A DNA stretch of 64,000 nt from a virus: the IMG/VR virus record IMGVR_UViG_3300031999_000005, positions 1-64,000 of that record. One strand, written 5' to 3'. Shown piece after piece: positions 9,078 through 40,896 of the stretch. The position numbers and the translations under genes are program-made. Positions within the stretch are counted from its first letter, which is position 1. Each line of letters begins with the position of its first letter. Below the pieces are notes generated by a model. The model saw nothing but the letters and a program-made list of their open reading frames with translations. It was not told the DNA's origin and ran no database searches.

Positions 9078-9340
9078 CGGTGCTGGGGCAGGGTCTCTCC
9101 CGCTTCTGCTATCACTGTGGGGCATACTTGGGGGACAAATGCCAGAAGTGCGGAGAGACCCAGCACCGGTTCATCTTCGCCTACGATTACTGGACTGGCG
9201 TGGCGATGTACGTGCTGTGCCAGTGCGTGTGTGGGAACGTGTGGGAGCGGCTGAAGGGCGAGAAAACTAGCGGGGCTTGCCAACCGTGCTTTAAGCGATT
9301 TCTAGAAGAGAATCGGCCGAGAGAGGCGGTAGCGGTATGA
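9074..9340 (+). CDS. Cys-rich zinc-finger protein
   Basis: Multiple CxxC pairs; GTGA overlap with upstream stop. Confidence 0.55.
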   Translation: MTVLGQGLSRFCYHCGAYLGDKCQKCGETQHRFIFAYDYWTGVAMYVLCQCVCGNVWERLKGEKTSGACQPCFKRFLEENRPREAVAV

Positions 9341-22536: not shown

Positions 22537-25115
22537 TTAACCTCCGTTCATTGCCTTGATAACGTCCTCACCAAGCTGGCGGCCGTATTTCTTGAGCAGC
22601 TTTCGGCCGAGGGCCGCAGCTTTTGCCGAAAGAGTGGGCGCCGCCGCCAGGGAATGTCCGATCCTCGCGTCCATGCGGTTAAATCCGTGCCCGTCGAGTA
22701 GCCGGGCACCGTCGCACACGCCGGCCAGGGTCCGCAGCGCGGAATGGACGGCTTGGATCTGCGCGGCGGTGATCGTCTCGGCCTCTTTCTCCACCGTGGC
22801 ACGGGAGACATTCCTTGTAGCTGCCTGTTCCTTTGCAGGGGTGATTGGTACGGTGGATTCGATCTTGTCGTCCAGGGCGGCGTCGAAGACCTTTTGTTTT
22901 TCCACCAGCGTCCACGCCATCTTTGCGTCGAGCGAACCGTCCAGCACTAGGTATTGAACCAGCACCGGGTTGACAGTGCCAATCCGGTGACACCGAGCGA
23001 TAGCCTGCGAGATATTGGTCGGCACATAGTCAAGCTCGGCGAAGATTTCGTGGCTGCTGGCCGTTAAGGTGATTCCTATGCCTGATGCCTGGATGGAGCC
23101 GACGAATAGTTTAATCTCGGGATCATTCTGAAAGCGGTGGATCGCCTCGTCCTTCTGTGTCTCGCTGAGGCCGCCGCGATGCAGGACTGCCACGCCGGGG
23201 AACTCGGCTATCAGCGCATTTCCTACATCGTGATGGTGACACCAAAGCACCACCTTCCCCCCCTCCTCCAAGGCATTGCGCACATGCTCGGTAACCAGAG
23301 GCACCTTGCAGACAGCGGTATCATGGCGCAACTTGGCGATCTCGGTAAAGGCGGCGTTCACTCCCTTGGTGAGTTTCGCTATGGCCTTCCGGTAATCCTC
23401 AGGGTCCTCGGATGCTTTCGCCAGTTCGACGGCAACGCGCAGTTCTTCTATGGCCTCTTCATGGCGCTGGTAACCTTCTTCCTCAGCGGCTATGAACCGT
23501 GCCATCTCTGCTGTTGGTGGGATTTCAATTACCTGATGCAGGATGGGCGGTAGTTCACGGAGGACATCTTGCTTCAGTCGGCGGATCATGCAAACTTTTC
23601 TCAGCAGTTCTTGCAACTCAGGAAGATTGCTTGCGCCGGAAAAGTCCCAAACCATTTTGCCGCGTCGGTTCACGACCTTTTGGTGCGCGTTGCAGAATCG
23701 TCGCAGGAATTTCCAGGTGCCGCCGAACTGCTCAATCACTCCAAGAATCTCCAGCGGGAAGGCCAACTCTTGCGGTCTGTTTAGAAAAGGTGTGCCACTA
23801 AGAGCCATGATCCGCTTGCCATTCCCTTCGCAGAGTCCCTTGACGGCTTTCGACCTGGCCGCCTTCGAGGACTTAGCCATGTGGATTTCGTCAATGATGA
23901 TTGTCTGCGGAGCAACCTGTTTGATAGCTGGTAACCATGCGTGCAATATATCGTAGTTACAGATAATGAGGGCCTTCGGTGGCAGCGGCCAGAGTTCCGA
24001 TTGTTTCCGGGTGGAGAGGGGAACTGGAGTGCAATCAGGGATGAGCCTTCGGGCTTCCCGAGCCCAGTTCAACTTCAAACTGGCCGGCGTAATCACGATA
24101 GCAGGCCATTCCTGAGTCACAGCAAGCACGCCAAGCGCCTCCCAAGTTTTACCCAAGCCGGTCAGCCCATCTCATCGCCGAACAGGACTCCTGTTTTGGC
24201 GTGAGATGGGCTTGCACCTCCTTTCAGTGCTTGAAGCGAATGACTTTCCAACCCAAAGCTTCGAGCACTTCGGTTTTTTTCTGATCTTTCTCCGCTTGCC
24301 ACCGGCACCTGTGGGACGCCCCGTCTAACTCGATCACGATTCTGAGGGACGGATGGGCAAAGTCCGCCTTGTAACTGCGTGGCGGTTGGTGTTCCGTCCC
24401 GTGGCCCTTCGTTCTGATGATGTATTCCTGGATGCAACCAAGAGGTTGGAGCATTCTCGACATTGCTTGAGACATCGGTGTCGGAGGTTGCCCGTTGCCC
24501 CCGCTGAAGTAGCTTGGATTTTTGGCTAAAGCTCGAAGATGTTTCTCTCGCACCTCCGGCCGGTGCATCGCCTTGCGTGTAGCTTCGGAAACCCTCATTC
24601 GCCATTCCGGGTTTGCAGCTATGGTTCTGAGGGCCTGTCTGGCCTTGCGTCTGGCAGCAGGGCCGTGTCCCAAGGCTAGATTCTGGCGGGCTGCTTCCAG
24701 TTGCTCTTTCGTTCTCCGGTATACCCCTGTTGGCATTGACTTCCTCCCTAACCCCATTATGGGTCTTGAGAGAACTGAAATCAAAGCCAAATTTCTCCAA
24801 AGCGTATTTGATAGCGGCTTTCTGGAACCCGAAGTAATTGATGCCGTTCGGTGCCGGGATCTCAATATCGGCATCGGTGGCTCGGCTGGCGGCCATGGAT
24901 TGCTCTCGGGCGTCGGCCGCGCCCTGGAGCACTGCGCGGGTTTCATCGTCGGCGTACTGAATCAGCCGGGAAGCGGTTTCGATGGATTCGGTGTACCAGC
25001 CGCGGCGTTCTCCAAGAAGGCCAGCCGACCACCGAAATCCGGCGGACTTGGGCACCGTGCGTTCGTCATAGGAGCACACGCAGTAGAACCGCTTTCCATC
25101 GGTGATGAGTGTCAA
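22537..25115 (-). CDS. SNF2/HARP-like helicase interrupted by an 8-nt coding gap (24157-24164) and carrying an in-frame insertion
   Basis: Part 1 ends GVLFGDEMG*, part 2 begins LGKT, then DEIH, LSGTP, RRLK, GITLT, QAIARCHRIG; Q-motif FQKAAI in part 1. Confidence 0.9.
24224..24736 (-). CDS. Vsr-like / DUF559 (EDxHD-type) endonuclease nested out of frame in the helicase gene
   Basis: SD GGAGG then ATG; basic repeats; ADFAHP...IELDGASH...KDQKKTEVL...GWKVIRF. Confidence 0.85.
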   Translation of the reverse strand: MPTGVYRRTKEQLEAARQNLALGHGPAARRKARQALRTIAANPEWRMRVSEATRKAMHRPEVREKHLRALAKNPSYFSGGNGQPPTPMSQAMSRMLQPLGCIQEYIIRTKGHGTEHQPPRSYKADFAHPSLRIVIELDGASHRCRWQAEKDQKKTEVLEALGWKVIRFKH

Positions 25116-25281
25116 GCCGCAACCACCTTTCGTAGCTGTCGAGATCCCCGCGAGTAGAGCCGTGCGCAGTCAGGGCAGATCACCCAGTTGCTTACCGCCA
25201 TGCACCGCGGCAGATCATGGGTCCATGGTTTTCTGCACCGAGGGCAGACATGCGGGTGCGGCACGCTGGTGGATGGTGCCT

Positions 25282-25785
25282 TCAATCCTTCACCTTCCAT
25301 CTCACGTCATCCCACTTCCGCAGGACCTCTCTCCGCATCTGTCGGCTGAGATGGACAAAGAACATACGCCCATCGAGATGGTCTAGCTCATGGGCCGCTG
25401 TCCGGGCGTCCAGGTCGAGCAGGACGGATTCGTGGGCGACTCCGTAAACGTCCAGGTAGAACATGCGCACCCACCGGGGGCGCTGAACCTGTGCGCGGAT
25501 ACCCGGCAGGGACAGGCAACCCTCTTCCATCAGGGCAGTATCGTGCTCCTTCACTTCCAAGCGTGGATTGCAGACTGCCAAGGGCGCCCCGACCCGCCGC
25601 TCCATGACGAAGACGCACCGAGCAACACCCACTTGCGGGCCGGCCAAGCCGACACCGTGGCGTTCTTGCATCGTGGCGATCATGTCTTCGGCCAACCGAA
25701 TCAGCCAGGGTTTACCAAACGCCGCTTCTGCGACTGGCAGGCAGCGAGCGGTAAGGATTGGATTGGGCCAGAGGATGATTTTCAA
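25282..25785 (-). CDS. def: Peptide deformylase
   Basis: GVGLAGPQVG, EGCLS, HELDHLDG. Confidence 0.95.
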   Translation of the reverse strand: MKIILWPNPILTARCLPVAEAAFGKPWLIRLAEDMIATMQERHGVGLAGPQVGVARCVFVMERRVGAPLAVCNPRLEVKEHDTALMEEGCLSLPGIRAQVQRPRWVRMFYLDVYGVAHESVLLDLDARTAAHELDHLDGRMFFVHLSRQMRREVLRKWDDVRWKVKD

Positions 25786-39093: not shown

Positions 39094-40896
39094 ATGGAAA
39101 AGGCATACTACAACGAAAATGACGGTTTCGCGGCTGCATGGCTGCGGGAACTGATAAAGGAGGGAGTAATTGCCCATGGTGAAGTCGATGAACGAGACAT
39201 TTGGGATGTTCGGCCAGAGGAGCTTGCTGGATTTACCCAATGTCATTTCTTCGCCGGAATCGGAACTTGGTCCTACGCCCTGCGTTGTGCCGGTTGGGCC
39301 GATGATAGACCCTGCTGGACTGGCTCCTGCCCTTGCCAGCCTTTCAGCGCGAGCGGCAAAAGAAAAGGGTTTGCTGACGAGCGGCACTTATGGCCGGCGT
39401 GGTTCCATCTCATCCGCGTCTGCCGACCTCCAGTGGTCTATGGCGAGCAGGTTGCGGGAGGTGACGGCGAAACTTGGCTCGACCTTGTTCAGGCTGATTT
39501 GGAAGGAGAAGGTTACGCAGTCCCACCGTTTGATCTACCGGCTGCGGGCTTCGGCGCGCCGCACATCAGGCAGCGATTGTACTTCGTGGCCGACGCCGAA
39601 GACCCCAACCGGAGGGCCGGAAAGCGCGGAGAGAAAACAGGAATTGGGACGAACAGAAAGCGGGGGCGGGGATTTGCAGGCAGTAGCGCAAATGGCGGCA
39701 TGGCCGACGCCGCAGAGTCACGACGAACGGGAGCGCGGGAACACGGAAGCGGACCATCACTATTTCCCCCACGACCTGAGCAATGCGGCGAAGATGGCCG
39801 CATGGTGCAGCCCCTCAGTTGCGGACGGAACCGGAGGGCATTTGAGTCGCGGCGGGAATCGGAGGAACGAACCGTTGCTTCCGGGACAGGCGAAACTGGC
39901 GAGTTGGGCCACGCCGCGAAGCACGGACGGCCAGAAGGGCGGGCCGAATCAGCACGGCAGCAAGGGCGATCTGATGCTGCCGAGCCAGGCGGCGAGGGCT
40001 TCCTGGGCCACGCCAGCAGGGCGAGATTTTCGGGACGGGCGAGCCAGCCAGAAAACAATGGAGAAGAACGCACGGCCCCTGAACGAACAGGCGGTCCAAC
40101 TAACGGCTTCTGGGCCAACGCCGAATGGCTCCACTGCCGAGACCAGAAATACCGGGCAGTTGAACCCAAGTTTATCTCGCTATTTGCAGGGTCTTCCGGT
40201 AGAATGGGACTTGGCGGCTACAAGGGTAGAAAAGAAGCCGTCAAGGAGGAAGTGAATGCCAATCCCAGCGAAGCCGGACCCTGTAAGATTCTGCGCACTG
40301 TGCGGAAAGCAAATGCAGCGCCAGCGATACAACGGAGTCTTGGAGTCAAACCTGAACTTCCGGCGGCGGAAATACTGCAATCGAAACTGTATGGCCGTGG
40401 GGCAAATCCGCGAAGTAGTAATGAGCGTGAGCCACAGTCGGATCAAATCGCACCGCAAGGCCAAGGCGGAGTGCGAGATATGCCGGAAGTCCGACAAGAT
40501 CCATGTTCACCATCGCGACGGAAACCCCCTGAACAACGCGACCGACAATTTGCAGACTTTGTGCGCCTCGTGCCATCGTCTTACGCACTCGCCCAACTAC
40601 ATGGGGACACCGTTACTGCCGAAGCCATGTTCACACTGCTCAAAGCCAGTGGCGCGGAAAGGCTTGTGCAATACCCACCTTACCAGGTTGAAGCGGTATG
40701 GCGATCCCTTGGTCAAGAAGTTCAAGATCGGCTCCGAATGGGTTTTGATGCGGGTAACTTCGTGAGAATAACGGAACCGCCCCTCATCAAGGGAACCGTG
40801 AACAGAGTGGGACGCCTGCGCGGTTACGGCAACGCGCTCACGGCACCGGTTGCCGAGGCTTTCATCAGATGTTATCTTGAAATCCATGGGAGATAA
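39094..40896 (+). CDS. DNA (cytosine-5) methyltransferase, large (alpha) polypeptide
   Basis: FFAGIG (I), GSCPCQPFS (IV), EQV (VI), PHIRQRL (VIII), RLRGYGNA (X). Confidence 0.9.
   Translation: MEKAYYNENDGFAAAWLRELIKEGVIAHGEVDERDIWDVRPEELAGFTQCHFFAGIGTWSYALRCAGWADDRPCWTGSCPCQPFSASGKRKGFADERHLWPAWFHLIRVCRPPVVYGEQVAGGDGETWLDLVQADLEGEGYAVPPFDLPAAGFGAPHIRQRLYFVADAEDPNRRAGKRGEKTGIGTNRKRGRGFAGSSANGGMADAAESRRTGAREHGSGPSLFPPRPEQCGEDGRMVQPLSCGRNRRAFESRRESEERTVASGTGETGELGHAAKHGRPEGRAESARQQGRSDAAEPGGEGFLGHASRARFSGRASQPENNGEERTAPERTGGPTNGFWANAEWLHCRDQKYRAVEPKFISLFAGSSGRMGLGGYKGRKEAVKEEVNANPSEAGPCKILRTVRKANAAPAIQRSLGVKPELPAAEILQSKLYGRGANPRSSNEREPQSDQIAPQGQGGVRDMPEVRQDPCSPSRRKPPEQRDRQFADFVRLVPSSYALAQLHGDTVTAEAMFTLLKASGAERLVQYPPYQVEAVWRSLGQEVQDRLRMGFDAGNFVRITEPPLIKGTVNRVGRLRGYGNALTAPVAEAFIRCYLEIHGR
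39170..40255 (+). CDS. Overlapping alternative-frame polypeptide (putative beta subunit carrying motif IX)
   Basis: 361-codon open frame inside the MTase gene; WPTP/WATP repeats; ends GQLNPSLSRYLQGLPVEW; true start uncertain. Confidence 0.7.
   Translation: MPMVKSMNETFGMFGQRSLLDLPNVISSPESELGPTPCVVPVGPMIDPAGLAPALASLSARAAKEKGLLTSGTYGRRGSISSASADLQWSMASRLREVTAKLGSTLFRLIWKEKVTQSHRLIYRLRASARRTSGSDCTSWPTPKTPTGGPESAERKQELGRTESGGGDLQAVAQMAAWPTPQSHDERERGNTEADHHYFPHDLSNAAKMAAWCSPSVADGTGGHLSRGGNRRNEPLLPGQAKLASWATPRSTDGQKGGPNQHGSKGDLMLPSQAARASWATPAGRDFRDGRASQKTMEKNARPLNEQAVQLTASGPTPNGSTAETRNTGQLNPSLSRYLQGLPVEWDLAATRVEKKPSRRK
40256..40765 (+). CDS. HNH endonuclease nested in the MTase gene
   Basis: SD GGAGG; CEIC...HVHHRDGNPLNN...NLQTLCASCH. 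Confidence 0.88.
   Translation: MPIPAKPDPVRFCALCGKQMQRQRYNGVLESNLNFRRRKYCNRNCMAVGQIREVVMSVSHSRIKSHRKAKAECEICRKSDKIHVHHRDGNPLNNATDNLQTLCASCHRLTHSPNYMGTPLLPKPCSHCSKPVARKGLCNTHLTRLKRYGDPLVKKFKIGSEWVLMRVTS

Follow-up and report, generated by a model that had tools for sequence, protein, structure and literature searches.

How can a homing endonuclease gene sit inside the coding region of a helicase, with no evident intron or intein, and leave the helicase readable? Homing endonuclease genes are thought to persist in essential genes by means of introns, inteins or splitting of the gene. The locus analyzed here lies in a window of 64,000 nucleotides (positions 1 to 64,000 of IMG/VR virus record IMGVR_UViG_3300031999_000005), from a metagenome-assembled genome of 103.8 kb that is 88% complete. 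A preliminary description of this DNA proposed that the host frame simply stays open through the nuclease gene and that the extra residues are tolerated as a disordered loop. Our analysis suggests that this is half of the answer: probably, a selfish cassette of ~590 bp is read through in the helicase frame and a second interruption, an 8-nt gap inside Walker A, is crossed by a ribosomal hop.

The SNF2 helicase gene, the cassette, the gap and an associated hairpin are all on the minus strand. The helicase and cassette features are:

24162-25115, minus strand: ORF-A, 317 codons, ending ...DEMG and then TGA (24164-24162)
24792-25115, minus strand: helicase N-terminal domain with the Q motif, aligning with the insert-free homologue P0002 and with P0076
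about 24201-24791, minus strand: the insert, ~590 nt, between the Q motif and motif I, with boundaries good to a few codons
24756-24784, minus strand: sigma-70-like promoter TTGATT-17-CATAAT, inside the helicase frame
24743-24748, minus strand: Shine-Dalgarno sequence GGGAGG of the endonuclease, 6 nt upstream of its ATG
24224-24736, minus strand: Vsr/DUF559 (EDxHD-type) homing endonuclease ORF, 170 aa, in frame +1 relative to the helicase, ATG at 24736, stop TGA at 24226-24224
24165-24200, minus strand: the helicase's own codons AKTGVLFGDEMG, covering strand beta-1 and the first half of Walker A
22537-24156, minus strand: ORF-B, the remaining helicase (LGKTWEAL... to the stop), 539 codons, with SNF2 and Helicase_C domains intact

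ORF-A starts at a TTG that overlaps the stop of a small upstream ORF (TTGA) and contains the Q motif, FQKAAIKYALEK, at 24827-24792. ORF-B retains all helicase motifs, matches PF00176 (E=6.8e-16) and PF00271 (E=8.3e-9), and is 87% identical to P0002 over the core. A protein search with ORF-A returned a single weak match and no further N-terminal fragments with DEMG at their end, and a viral-contig search with the P0002 helicase as query found no close relative. Alignment with an insert-free homologue, recommended earlier as a check on the boundaries, did place them. P0002 reads ALEH-RATFLGDSMGLGKT at the site, and P0076, a natural and uninterrupted protein of 859 aa, carries a homologous insert at the identical position; together they define the insert. 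Alleles with and without an insert at this same site (the latter being P0002) are found among helicases that are only 47% identical.

The overprinted nuclease gene of the preliminary description is borne out. The 170-aa ORF in the +1 frame, with its own GGGAGG, matches Pfam DUF559 (E=3.8e-11), and its catalytic residues E136, D138, H142 and D151 do not vary among six relatives. Profile searches matched PDB 3HRL (E=1e-4) and, marginally, I-Bth0305I (E=0.17). Vsr and I-Bth0305I were the top relevant fold matches when an AlphaFold2 model of the nuclease (pLDDT 77) was searched with Foldseek (3R3P, the I-Bth0305I catalytic domain: probability 1.00, TM 0.57, rmsd 3.4; Vsr 1CW0: probability 0.98), with E-values all >0.001, so that fold support is moderate. 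Four consecutive helices are predicted at the N-terminus (residues 10-72), where no Pfam NUMOD match was found at E<=0.1. Among relatives, identity in the nuclease frame is 43-67%, and nucleotide identity is higher at codon positions 1 and 2 than at position 3. Judged by these results together, the nuclease is a real gene under selection at the protein level. Its promoter is the only promoter-like site in 24000-25400; three relatives (L069, L086 and L089) keep TTGATT-17-TATAAT at the cassette's 5' end, and a conserved near-palindrome also lies at this end.

That no intron or intein signature is visible was likewise confirmed. No Rfam intron family matched at E<=10 in 23800-25300, and permissive thresholds gave only chance-level matches. 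The promoter, Shine-Dalgarno sequence and ORF take up the whole insert except for ~80 nt, leaving ~55 nt upstream and ~25 nt downstream of the nuclease ORF. The insert junctions, ALEK|FGFD and SHAKT|GVLF (K|F and T|G), do not have the form of intein junctions; those of intein-borne relatives read DEC|FPAGT...VVHN|CHH, and the relatives L074-L077, L051 and L061 have clear inteins. By its sequence, then, the cassette belongs with neither introns nor inteins.

Read in the helicase frame, the insert is 197 non-helicase codons (F109-H305) without a single stop, followed directly by the native AKTGVLFGDEMG. Across the nuclease ORF the host frame has 0 stops against 4.7 expected (synonymous-codon permutation, P=0.0024), while the third frame has 6 against 6.4 expected by the same procedure. 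The earlier claim that the helicase frame is stop-free thus stands for the insert itself; it fails a short distance beyond, since the frame ends inside Walker A at the 8-nt gap, which had been missed. Stops in the helicase frame of homologous inserts, which would have spoken against an open frame, were absent from all ten loci with related endonucleases, the present one included (2-11 expected; P<=0.0024 in 9/10), and in these ten the number of third-frame stops agreed with expectation. Four lineages among the related-endonuclease loci are intein-less like the present locus, and six have the nuclease within inteins. At L070 the nuclease has decayed, with a stop in it, and the host frame is still open. 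The host-frame peptide is conserved no more than that of the unused third frame, which argues that absence of stops alone is under selection. These counts indicate that the host frame is held stop-free by selection, here and in all related Vsr-type inserts examined.

The host-frame peptide of the insert is hydrophilic (GRAVY -1.07). Synonymous sites do not raise this hydrophilicity beyond expectation; it therefore follows from the amino-acid sequence of the nuclease. Structure prediction, also suggested as a check in the preliminary description, points to a loop: in the AlphaFold2 model of P0076, residues 131-309 have a pLDDT of ~29, a low value due in part to the few homologues in those alignment columns, and almost no secondary structure, whereas the flanking Q-motif helix and strand beta-1 are modelled with confidence (pLDDT >87). 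The insert would probably be translated and tolerated as an unstructured surface loop. The idea of an invasion without splicing, accommodated as a disordered loop, is partly supported: it is plausible as far as the insert is concerned, but the helicase ORF is not intact, because the gap remains. A separate consideration is that 197 residues between the Q motif and the P-loop could hamper ATP binding; tolerance is judged solely from conservation.

The gap and the elements around it are:

24157-24164, minus strand: 8-nt coding gap, consisting of UGA (24164-24162), CC (24161-24160) and the landing codon GGC (24159-24157)
24164-24212, minus strand: RNA hairpin of ~21 bp, an inverted repeat found by self-match, with outer stem AGCCCAUCUCA / UGAGAUGGGCU
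24215-24223, minus strand: Shine-Dalgarno-like AAGGAGGTG, immediately following the endonuclease stop, with 2-3 nt between it and the hairpin

The gap lies 27 nt downstream of the insert. It separates DEMG, in ORF-A, from LGKT, in ORF-B, which lie in different frames; omission of the 8 nt restores DEMGLGKT. The UGA directly follows the take-off codon GGC (24167-24165) and is itself followed by C, and the take-off codon is matched by the landing codon. The JGI, Logan and ENA assemblies give an identical call of the downstream ORF (530 aa), and a break present in three assemblies is not the artefact of a single assembler. The 103.8-kb genome does not contain the 8-mer as a repeated element. With a stop-containing gap in Walker A, invasion without splicing needs a second, translational fix, which is most likely a hop.

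Searches with Walker A gap patterns, in which most of the genome-contig matches were unrelated proteins, identified 14 further loci with a stop-initiated gap at the same codon, from +2 to +9 in size. UGA, UAG or UAA follows the take-off codon in every one of these relatives, and in 13/14 the take-off and landing codons are cognate, with co-varying third positions. The +8 form, Gly-stop-NN-Gly, also occurs in L125 (GGC UGA AU GGC) and L119 (GGC UAA AU GGA); the +2, +6, +7 and +9 forms occur in L099 and L105-L115. Matched codons include CUG UAG CUG, CUC UGA CUC, CUU UGA CUU/CUA, CUU UGA C CUC and GGC UAA AUA GGU, and the one exception to the rule is L109 (CUU UGA CC GGC). A strict pattern that combined the Shine-Dalgarno-like element with the hairpin arm matched the L004/L099 contig only. 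The 8-nt gap therefore looks like one member of a recurrent class of putative short ribosomal hops. The insert and the gap are separable features, as P0076 carries the insert and lacks the gap.

Two simpler ways of passing the stop were considered. A -1 frameshift at AUG GGC UGA would yield DEMG-LTG-LGKT, and as a general mechanism it fails for the in-frame +6 and +9 relatives. Readthrough of the stop codon could not mend the +2, +7 and +8 forms.

The hairpin (dG -40.8 kcal/mol, z -8.2) has a 3' arm that encodes VLFGDEMG and includes the take-off codon. Hairpins were found in 13/13 gap-bearing loci (mean z -4.65), as against a mean z of -0.30 in 32 gap-free helicases (Mann-Whitney p=1.3e-7); on this comparison it is a specific feature of gap-bearing genes. 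The frame in which its 5' arm is read varies between loci (SPS at some, THL at others), which indicates conservation at the nucleotide level with no conserved peptide. Comparison of the upstream nucleotides across gap-bearing loci gave no conserved nascent-peptide signal. In 7 of ~10 distinct gap-bearing relatives, an AAGGAGG comparable to the Shine-Dalgarno-like element precedes the hairpin by 3-8 nt. At take-off the 3' arm of the hairpin would be within the ribosome, so that the driving role proposed for it below is speculative.

Taken with the matched codons, these features make a programmed ribosomal hop, a short counterpart of that in T4 gene 60/mobA, the most likely way in which the gap is crossed. 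We propose that the ~590-bp homing-endonuclease cassette entered the SNF2 helicase gene after the Q-motif helix and before strand beta-1/motif I. The nuclease would be made in frame +1 from its own promoter, Shine-Dalgarno sequence and start. Since the cassette consists of whole codons and its host frame is stop-free, ribosomes translating the helicase would read straight through it, adding ~197 residues. When peptidyl-tRNA-Gly occupies GGC and the A site holds the weak stop UGA-C, the tRNA would release, perhaps aided by refolding of the upstream hairpin, whose stem holds the take-off codon. The comparative evidence suggests that the tRNA would then re-pair at the next GGC and that decoding would restart at UUG, giving DEMGLGKT. 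The predicted product is a protein of ~856 aa with the junction peptide GVLFGDEMGLGK. The analogy with T4 mobA/gene 60 suggests that in co-infection the nuclease would cut alleles lacking the insert and so copy the cassette, and the gap may shield the carrier allele from cutting. For the broader proposition, that the cassette family neutralises its own insertion into an essential helicase gene by translation alone, using neither intron, intein nor a split gene, through an open-frame spacer and a hairpin-assisted stop-hop of 2-9 nt, we judge the chances to be about even.

The UGA might instead be a true terminator, with the helicase made as two polypeptides. ORF-A (317 aa, ending in DEMG) and ORF-B (from the UUG at 24156) would then assemble non-covalently, ORF-B being started either from a Shine-Dalgarno sequence split by the hairpin or by termination at the UGA and re-initiation 5 nt downstream. 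UUG is a valid start codon at that distance, and the Shine-Dalgarno-like element at the 5' base of the hairpin would have an effective spacing of ~10 nt if the hairpin were folded. There are precedents in Aeh1 nrdA/mobE and T4 genes 39/60, and relatives with an HNH-type nuclease at the same site are split upstream, where the N-terminal ORF ends after ...AFG.. and a separate AUG starts ORF2. Taken by itself, the present locus is compatible with separate initiation of the C-terminal part. The comparison of gap-bearing genes makes this arrangement unlikely, however. In most of them the codon after the gap is CUA, CUC, CUU or CUG, which is unusable as a start yet always matches the codon before the stop, and a duplicated take-off codon serves no purpose under re-initiation. 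The break would also sit within the P-loop, and in relatives that lack the endonuclease gene the N-terminal part stays in frame as far as the gap.

The recurrence of the gap also bears on whether the gene is recently dead, killed by an 8-nt insertion, its open frame a relic of an earlier state or of intein ancestry. The frame is formally broken, the source is a metagenome-assembled genome of incomplete length, and the nuclease family occurs also in inteins, where an open frame is obligatory. But ORF-B is intact over 539 codons with all its motifs, and four further intein-less lineages, with nucleases 43-67% identical, all have an open host frame. A gap with matched codons, stop and hairpin recurs in 14 other loci of very different phages, which is not what random damage would produce. 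We regard a dead gene as quite improbable. Hidden removal of the insert, by cryptic RNA splicing or processing or by unrecognised protein splicing or proteolysis, is very improbable: although related Vsr-type nucleases do occur in group I introns (I-Bth0305I) and inteins, and the near-palindrome and the strong hairpin lie at opposite ends of the cassette, the Rfam result and the few nucleotides left for a ribozyme weigh against an intron, RNA splicing would make needless a stop-free frame that is under selection, and the junctions lack intein nucleophiles and an HN motif, with no space for a Hint fold. The hop thus remains our preferred reading.

Among known systems, the EDxHD prototype I-Bth0305I (Taylor et al. 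2011, PMC3239194) has its gene in a self-splicing group I intron of recA. Like the present nuclease, it combines a Vsr-like catalytic domain at the C-terminus, bearing the E/D/H/D residues, with an N-terminal region that is helical, and it resides in a phage DNA-metabolism gene; it differs in being intron-encoded, and the likeness is marginal in sequence and moderate in fold (TM 0.57 over the domain). In fractured genes (Dassa et al. 2009, PMC2677866) the intein is split, and a free-standing endonuclease gene, Vsr-like or GIY-YIG, separates its halves. They have the same nuclease family, phage replication enzymes as hosts and a cassette with its own control elements, but their host ORF is stopped and restarted and the product is trans-spliced. 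Here there are no intein halves and the host ORF is read through; the insert does not end an upstream ORF and supply a downstream start, since its 197 host-frame codons are free of stops. Aeromonas phage Aeh1 nrdA, according to papers citing Friedrich et al. 2007, is split by mobE into two polypeptides. It too has an endonuclease gene with neither intron nor intein, embedded in an essential gene that still works, whereas at the present locus the host frame is open through the nuclease gene.

Some non-canonical inteins have their endonuclease on the other strand or in a different frame (Gosselin, Arsenault and Gogarten, bioRxiv 10.1101/2025.01.02.630785, which also cites Gorbalenya 1998). There, as at the present locus, a free-standing type of endonuclease gene lies over a host segment without a recognisable fold, and the feature of an overlapping gene with the host frame kept open is present here. 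Helicase inteins of Pseudomonas phage MR14, Vibrio phages and Corynebacterium phage phi673 carry relatives of our nuclease in this layout. An endonuclease gene overprinted within an intein is an already published layout; the cases in that preprint are antisense VSR-like and frame-3 endonuclease VII-like, and none is same-strand +1 Vsr-like or intein-less. With no intein at the present locus, the extra residues cannot be removed by protein splicing. The present locus and four related lineages seem to point to a fourth route to persistence, an overprinted nuclease carried as an unstructured loop. Such loci are annotated as ordinary long helicases, which makes the nuclease invisible to gene callers; it was missed in 4/4 cultured-phage records examined.

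For the gap, a close counterpart is the 50-nt translational bypass of T4 mobA/gene 39-gene 60 (Bonocora et al. 2011; bioRxiv 10.1101/2022.08.31.505936). There as here, a homing-endonuclease cassette lies in an essential DNA-metabolism gene beside a catalytic motif, the untranslated gap opens with a stop right after a Gly take-off codon and has a matching landing codon, mRNA structure is involved, and some relatives have another nuclease family or have lost the nuclease and kept the gap. The two differ in that our gap is 8 nt, the hairpin is on the 5' side of the take-off codon, which it includes, where T4 has a take-off stem-loop in the gap, a nascent-peptide signal is not conserved, the host is an SNF2 helicase, and the nuclease gene leaves the host ORF unsplit, read through in another frame; the hop here is a prediction from sequence. 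Atkins and colleagues, in their 2016 review, knew of no natural occurrences of stop-hopping. If the broader proposition is correct, the cassette family would be the first case of stop-hopping in nature and, after T4 gene 60, only the second bypass system of a phage, and with it a new way of life for selfish DNA inside coding sequence.

The helicase gene of the window is in two parts, ORF-A and ORF-B, lying 5' and 3' of an 8-nt gap in the Walker A codons, and a nuclease gene is nested in the first part. The features of the region are:

24162..25115, minus: helicase ORF-A, with an N-terminus like that of phage SNF2 helicase
24827-24792, minus: Q motif FQKAAIKYALEK, in ORF-A
24784-24756, minus: sigma-70-like site TTGATT-17-CATAAT, just upstream of the nuclease ORF and the sole such site in the region
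24736..24224, minus: nuclease ORF of 170 aa, +1 relative to ORF-A, with a significant DUF559 match
22537..24156, minus: helicase ORF-B, in another frame than ORF-A, opening LGKTWEAL... and carrying SNF2 and Helicase_C domains

After the Q motif, ORF-A continues for 197 hydrophilic, non-helicase codons, then reads AKTGVLFGDEMG and ends at TGA. The closest related protein, P0002 (664 aa, 87% identical over the core), lacks this insert and reads ...YALEH-RATFLGDSMGLGKT. P0076 (859 aa, 47% identical) carries an insert at exactly the same site, with a similar start (ALKR-FGFDPSK... vs. ALEK-FGFDFSS... in the window), and its ORF is uninterrupted through GGVLIADQMGLGKT. Alignment of the two thus places the insert at ~24201-24791 (~590 nt, 197 codons). 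The overprinted nuclease gene claimed in the preliminary description is borne out by the +1 ORF with its DUF559 match and by a ribosome-binding sequence, GGGAGG, 6 nt 5' of the ATG. The nuclease was modeled at pLDDT 77: four helices make up the N-terminal part and an alpha/beta domain the C-terminal part, and the best relevant fold matches of the latter are the catalytic domain of I-Bth0305I and Vsr. The catalytic E, D, H and D are invariant in an alignment with relatives, and the enzyme presumably has homing activity.

DNA conservation at the 5' end of the Vsr-type cassette (window 24752-24784) extends to four other loci (L069:2960-3000, L086, L087 and L089). This end holds TTGATT-17-TATAAT and a perfect 16-nt palindrome, CCCATTATATAATGGG, around the -10 element; the window counterpart is CCCATAATGGGG. 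A promoter plus operator would be one reading, perhaps with autoregulation by the nuclease. Upstream of the helicase, a 62-aa ORF without Pfam match (25112-25300, minus) has CxxC...CxxC spacing and ends in a TTGA that overlaps the helicase TTG start. P0002 opens with the same MEGEG and goes straight on into helicase, so that one of the two genomes has a 185-nt indel flanked by TTGA.

The helicase frame is free of stops across the nuclease ORF, as had been described. When synonymous codons were permuted within the nuclease ORF, holding protein and codon usage constant, 4.7 stops were expected in this frame and none is present (P=0.0024); the third frame has 6 vs. 6.4 expected. Relatives of the nuclease were gathered by tblastn and pattern-based locus searches. 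Those in cultured phages (Pseudomonas phage MR14, more than 30 Vibrio phages and Corynebacterium phage phi673) always lie under a CDS annotated as helicase; others are on viral and metagenome contigs. In every locus examined the nuclease is +1 relative to a long host ORF. Host-frame stops across the nuclease gene number 0 at every locus, where 2-11 were expected (P<=0.0024 for 9 of the 10), and the third frame has 6-22 per locus. In L070 the nuclease gene (L070:2992-3540), 99% identical to that of L069, has a premature stop and the 895-codon host helicase frame is still open. Across the five lineages that lack an intein, nuclease-frame identity is 43-67%, nucleotide identity tracks nuclease codon positions (1 and 2 above 3), and the host-frame peptide is conserved no better than the unused third frame. 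Both the nuclease protein and the stop-free host frame are thus under selection, which in the host frame keeps only the absence of stops.

Two contexts occur. In L074-L077, L051 and L061 there is a clear intein at helicase motif II (DEC|FPAGT...VVHN|CHH), and the host-frame segment forms its linker; inteins with an out-of-frame endonuclease have been reported for other nucleases (2025 preprint, bioRxiv 10.1101/2025.01.02.630785). L074-L077 are cultured phages (MR14, Vibrio phages K391 and 159E43-1b, and phi673), and thus possible laboratory systems; within their annotated helicase CDS, the motif II intein encloses a complete +1 Vsr-type nuclease ORF absent from the record annotation. In the window, P0076, L069-L071 and L086-L090, the insert goes straight into a loop or inter-domain linker of the helicase, and there is no intein, the junction residues being wrong and the space too small for a Hint domain. 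No intron model matches this region (23800-25300 searched), so that the earlier reading of neither intein nor intron holds. No published description of such an intein-less read-through arrangement was found in the literature searched.

In an AlphaFold2 model of P0076, built from a 60-sequence alignment, the helicase is predicted with confidence, and so are its Q-motif helix (106-118) and its strand beta-1 (313-317); residues 131-309 have pLDDT ~29 and almost no secondary structure. The modeled insert fits an extruded disordered loop, bearing in mind that a lack of homologous columns there also lowers pLDDT. Two further related helicases, P0022 (851 aa) and P0119 (862 aa), have hydrophilic low-complexity inserts (~200 aa each) elsewhere, beyond motif Ia, as if another nested gene were being read through in the host frame. 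Elsewhere in the window, a 600-aa C5 DNA methyltransferase ORF (39094-40896, plus; PF00145, E=1e-12) is hydrophilic over a long middle stretch, in which an HNH endonuclease ORF (40256-40765, plus) is nested at +1, with 0 stops in the methyltransferase frame vs. 4.1 expected (P=0.006). This makes two nuclease inserts of the read-through type in the one phage.

The preliminary description had the gene invaded without splicing and the insert tolerated as a disordered loop. The open frame and the P0076 model support this, and the account is largely right but incomplete: the helicase frame does not run intact into Walker A. ORF-A ends DEMG-TGA, and LGKT resumes beyond 8 nt (24164-24157, minus), the mRNA reading GAU GAG AUG GGC UGA CC GGC UUG GGU AAA ACU. 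The UGA is flanked by identical GGC codons, and a skip from the first to the second would yield DEMGLGKT. The call of the downstream 530-aa ORF is identical in the JGI, Logan and ENA assemblies. Directly upstream of the gap is a hairpin of ~21 bp (24212-24164, minus; dG -40.8 kcal/mol, z -8.2), whose 3' arm is the VLFGDEMG coding sequence and whose 5' arm lies in the cassette tail, just 3' of an SD-like AAGGAGG.

In a search for Walker A codons with extra bases between them, 12 viral loci and 2 from bacterial MAGs came up. All have an SNF2 helicase broken precisely here, by a stop codon plus 0-6 more bases.

Gap forms at these loci
+2: CUU UA, landing on UUA
+6: CUG UAG CUG; CUC UGA CUC; CUU UGA CUU; CUU UGA CUA
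+7: CUU UGA C CUC
+8 (same as in the window): GGC UGA AU GGC; GGC UAA AU GGA
+9: GGC UAA AUA GGU

Take-off and landing codons co-vary across these loci. L109 (CUU UGA CC GGC, oriented 9119-9155) has no cognate landing codon and breaks the matched-codon rule; a +2 shift to UUG would yield DEMGLTGKT, and the variant may reflect recoding of another kind, a sequencing error or a copy that is defective. The called protein P0013 (525 aa, 48% identical to ORF-B) begins exactly at MGKT, which suggests another helicase broken at this position. The hairpin is present in 13 of 13 folded gap loci (the window and 12 viral), with mean z -4.65 vs. -0.30 in 32 gap-free helicases (p=1.3e-7). Its 5' arm is read in different frames by locus and is therefore conserved at the nucleotide level. 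Gap and hairpin are thus recurrent and regular. Re-initiation past the gap is disfavored because non-start codons follow it in most relatives, and stop-codon readthrough is excluded by gap forms not divisible by three.

We regard a ribosomal hop as the most likely mechanism. The +1-frame nuclease would be expressed from a homing cassette that brings both promoter and ribosome-binding site; helicase ribosomes would translate the cassette in frame 0, adding a disordered loop that is presumably tolerated, and would then hop 8 nt at GGC-UGA-C. Two features would probably aid the hop, the slowness of UGA-C as a stop and a refolding of the 5' hairpin, of which the take-off codon is part; the SD-like element may also take part, and the gap itself may be protective.

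The locus varies on known kinds, namely out-of-frame intein nucleases, nuclease-split genes and the gene 60 cassette. In the T4 mobA/gene 60 family the nuclease can be swapped or lost and the bypass persists (bioRxiv 10.1101/2022.08.31.505936). The helicase gap family is similar, its nuclease being swapped or lost while the gap stays: L004/L099, L105 and L107 have an HNH nuclease gene at the same insertion site and a truly split host gene; L115 has only a decayed HNH remnant there; L109 and L110 have lost the nuclease gene, the host gene still being split; and L106, L108, L111 and L112 have no nuclease gene and a short linker, with hairpin and gap kept.
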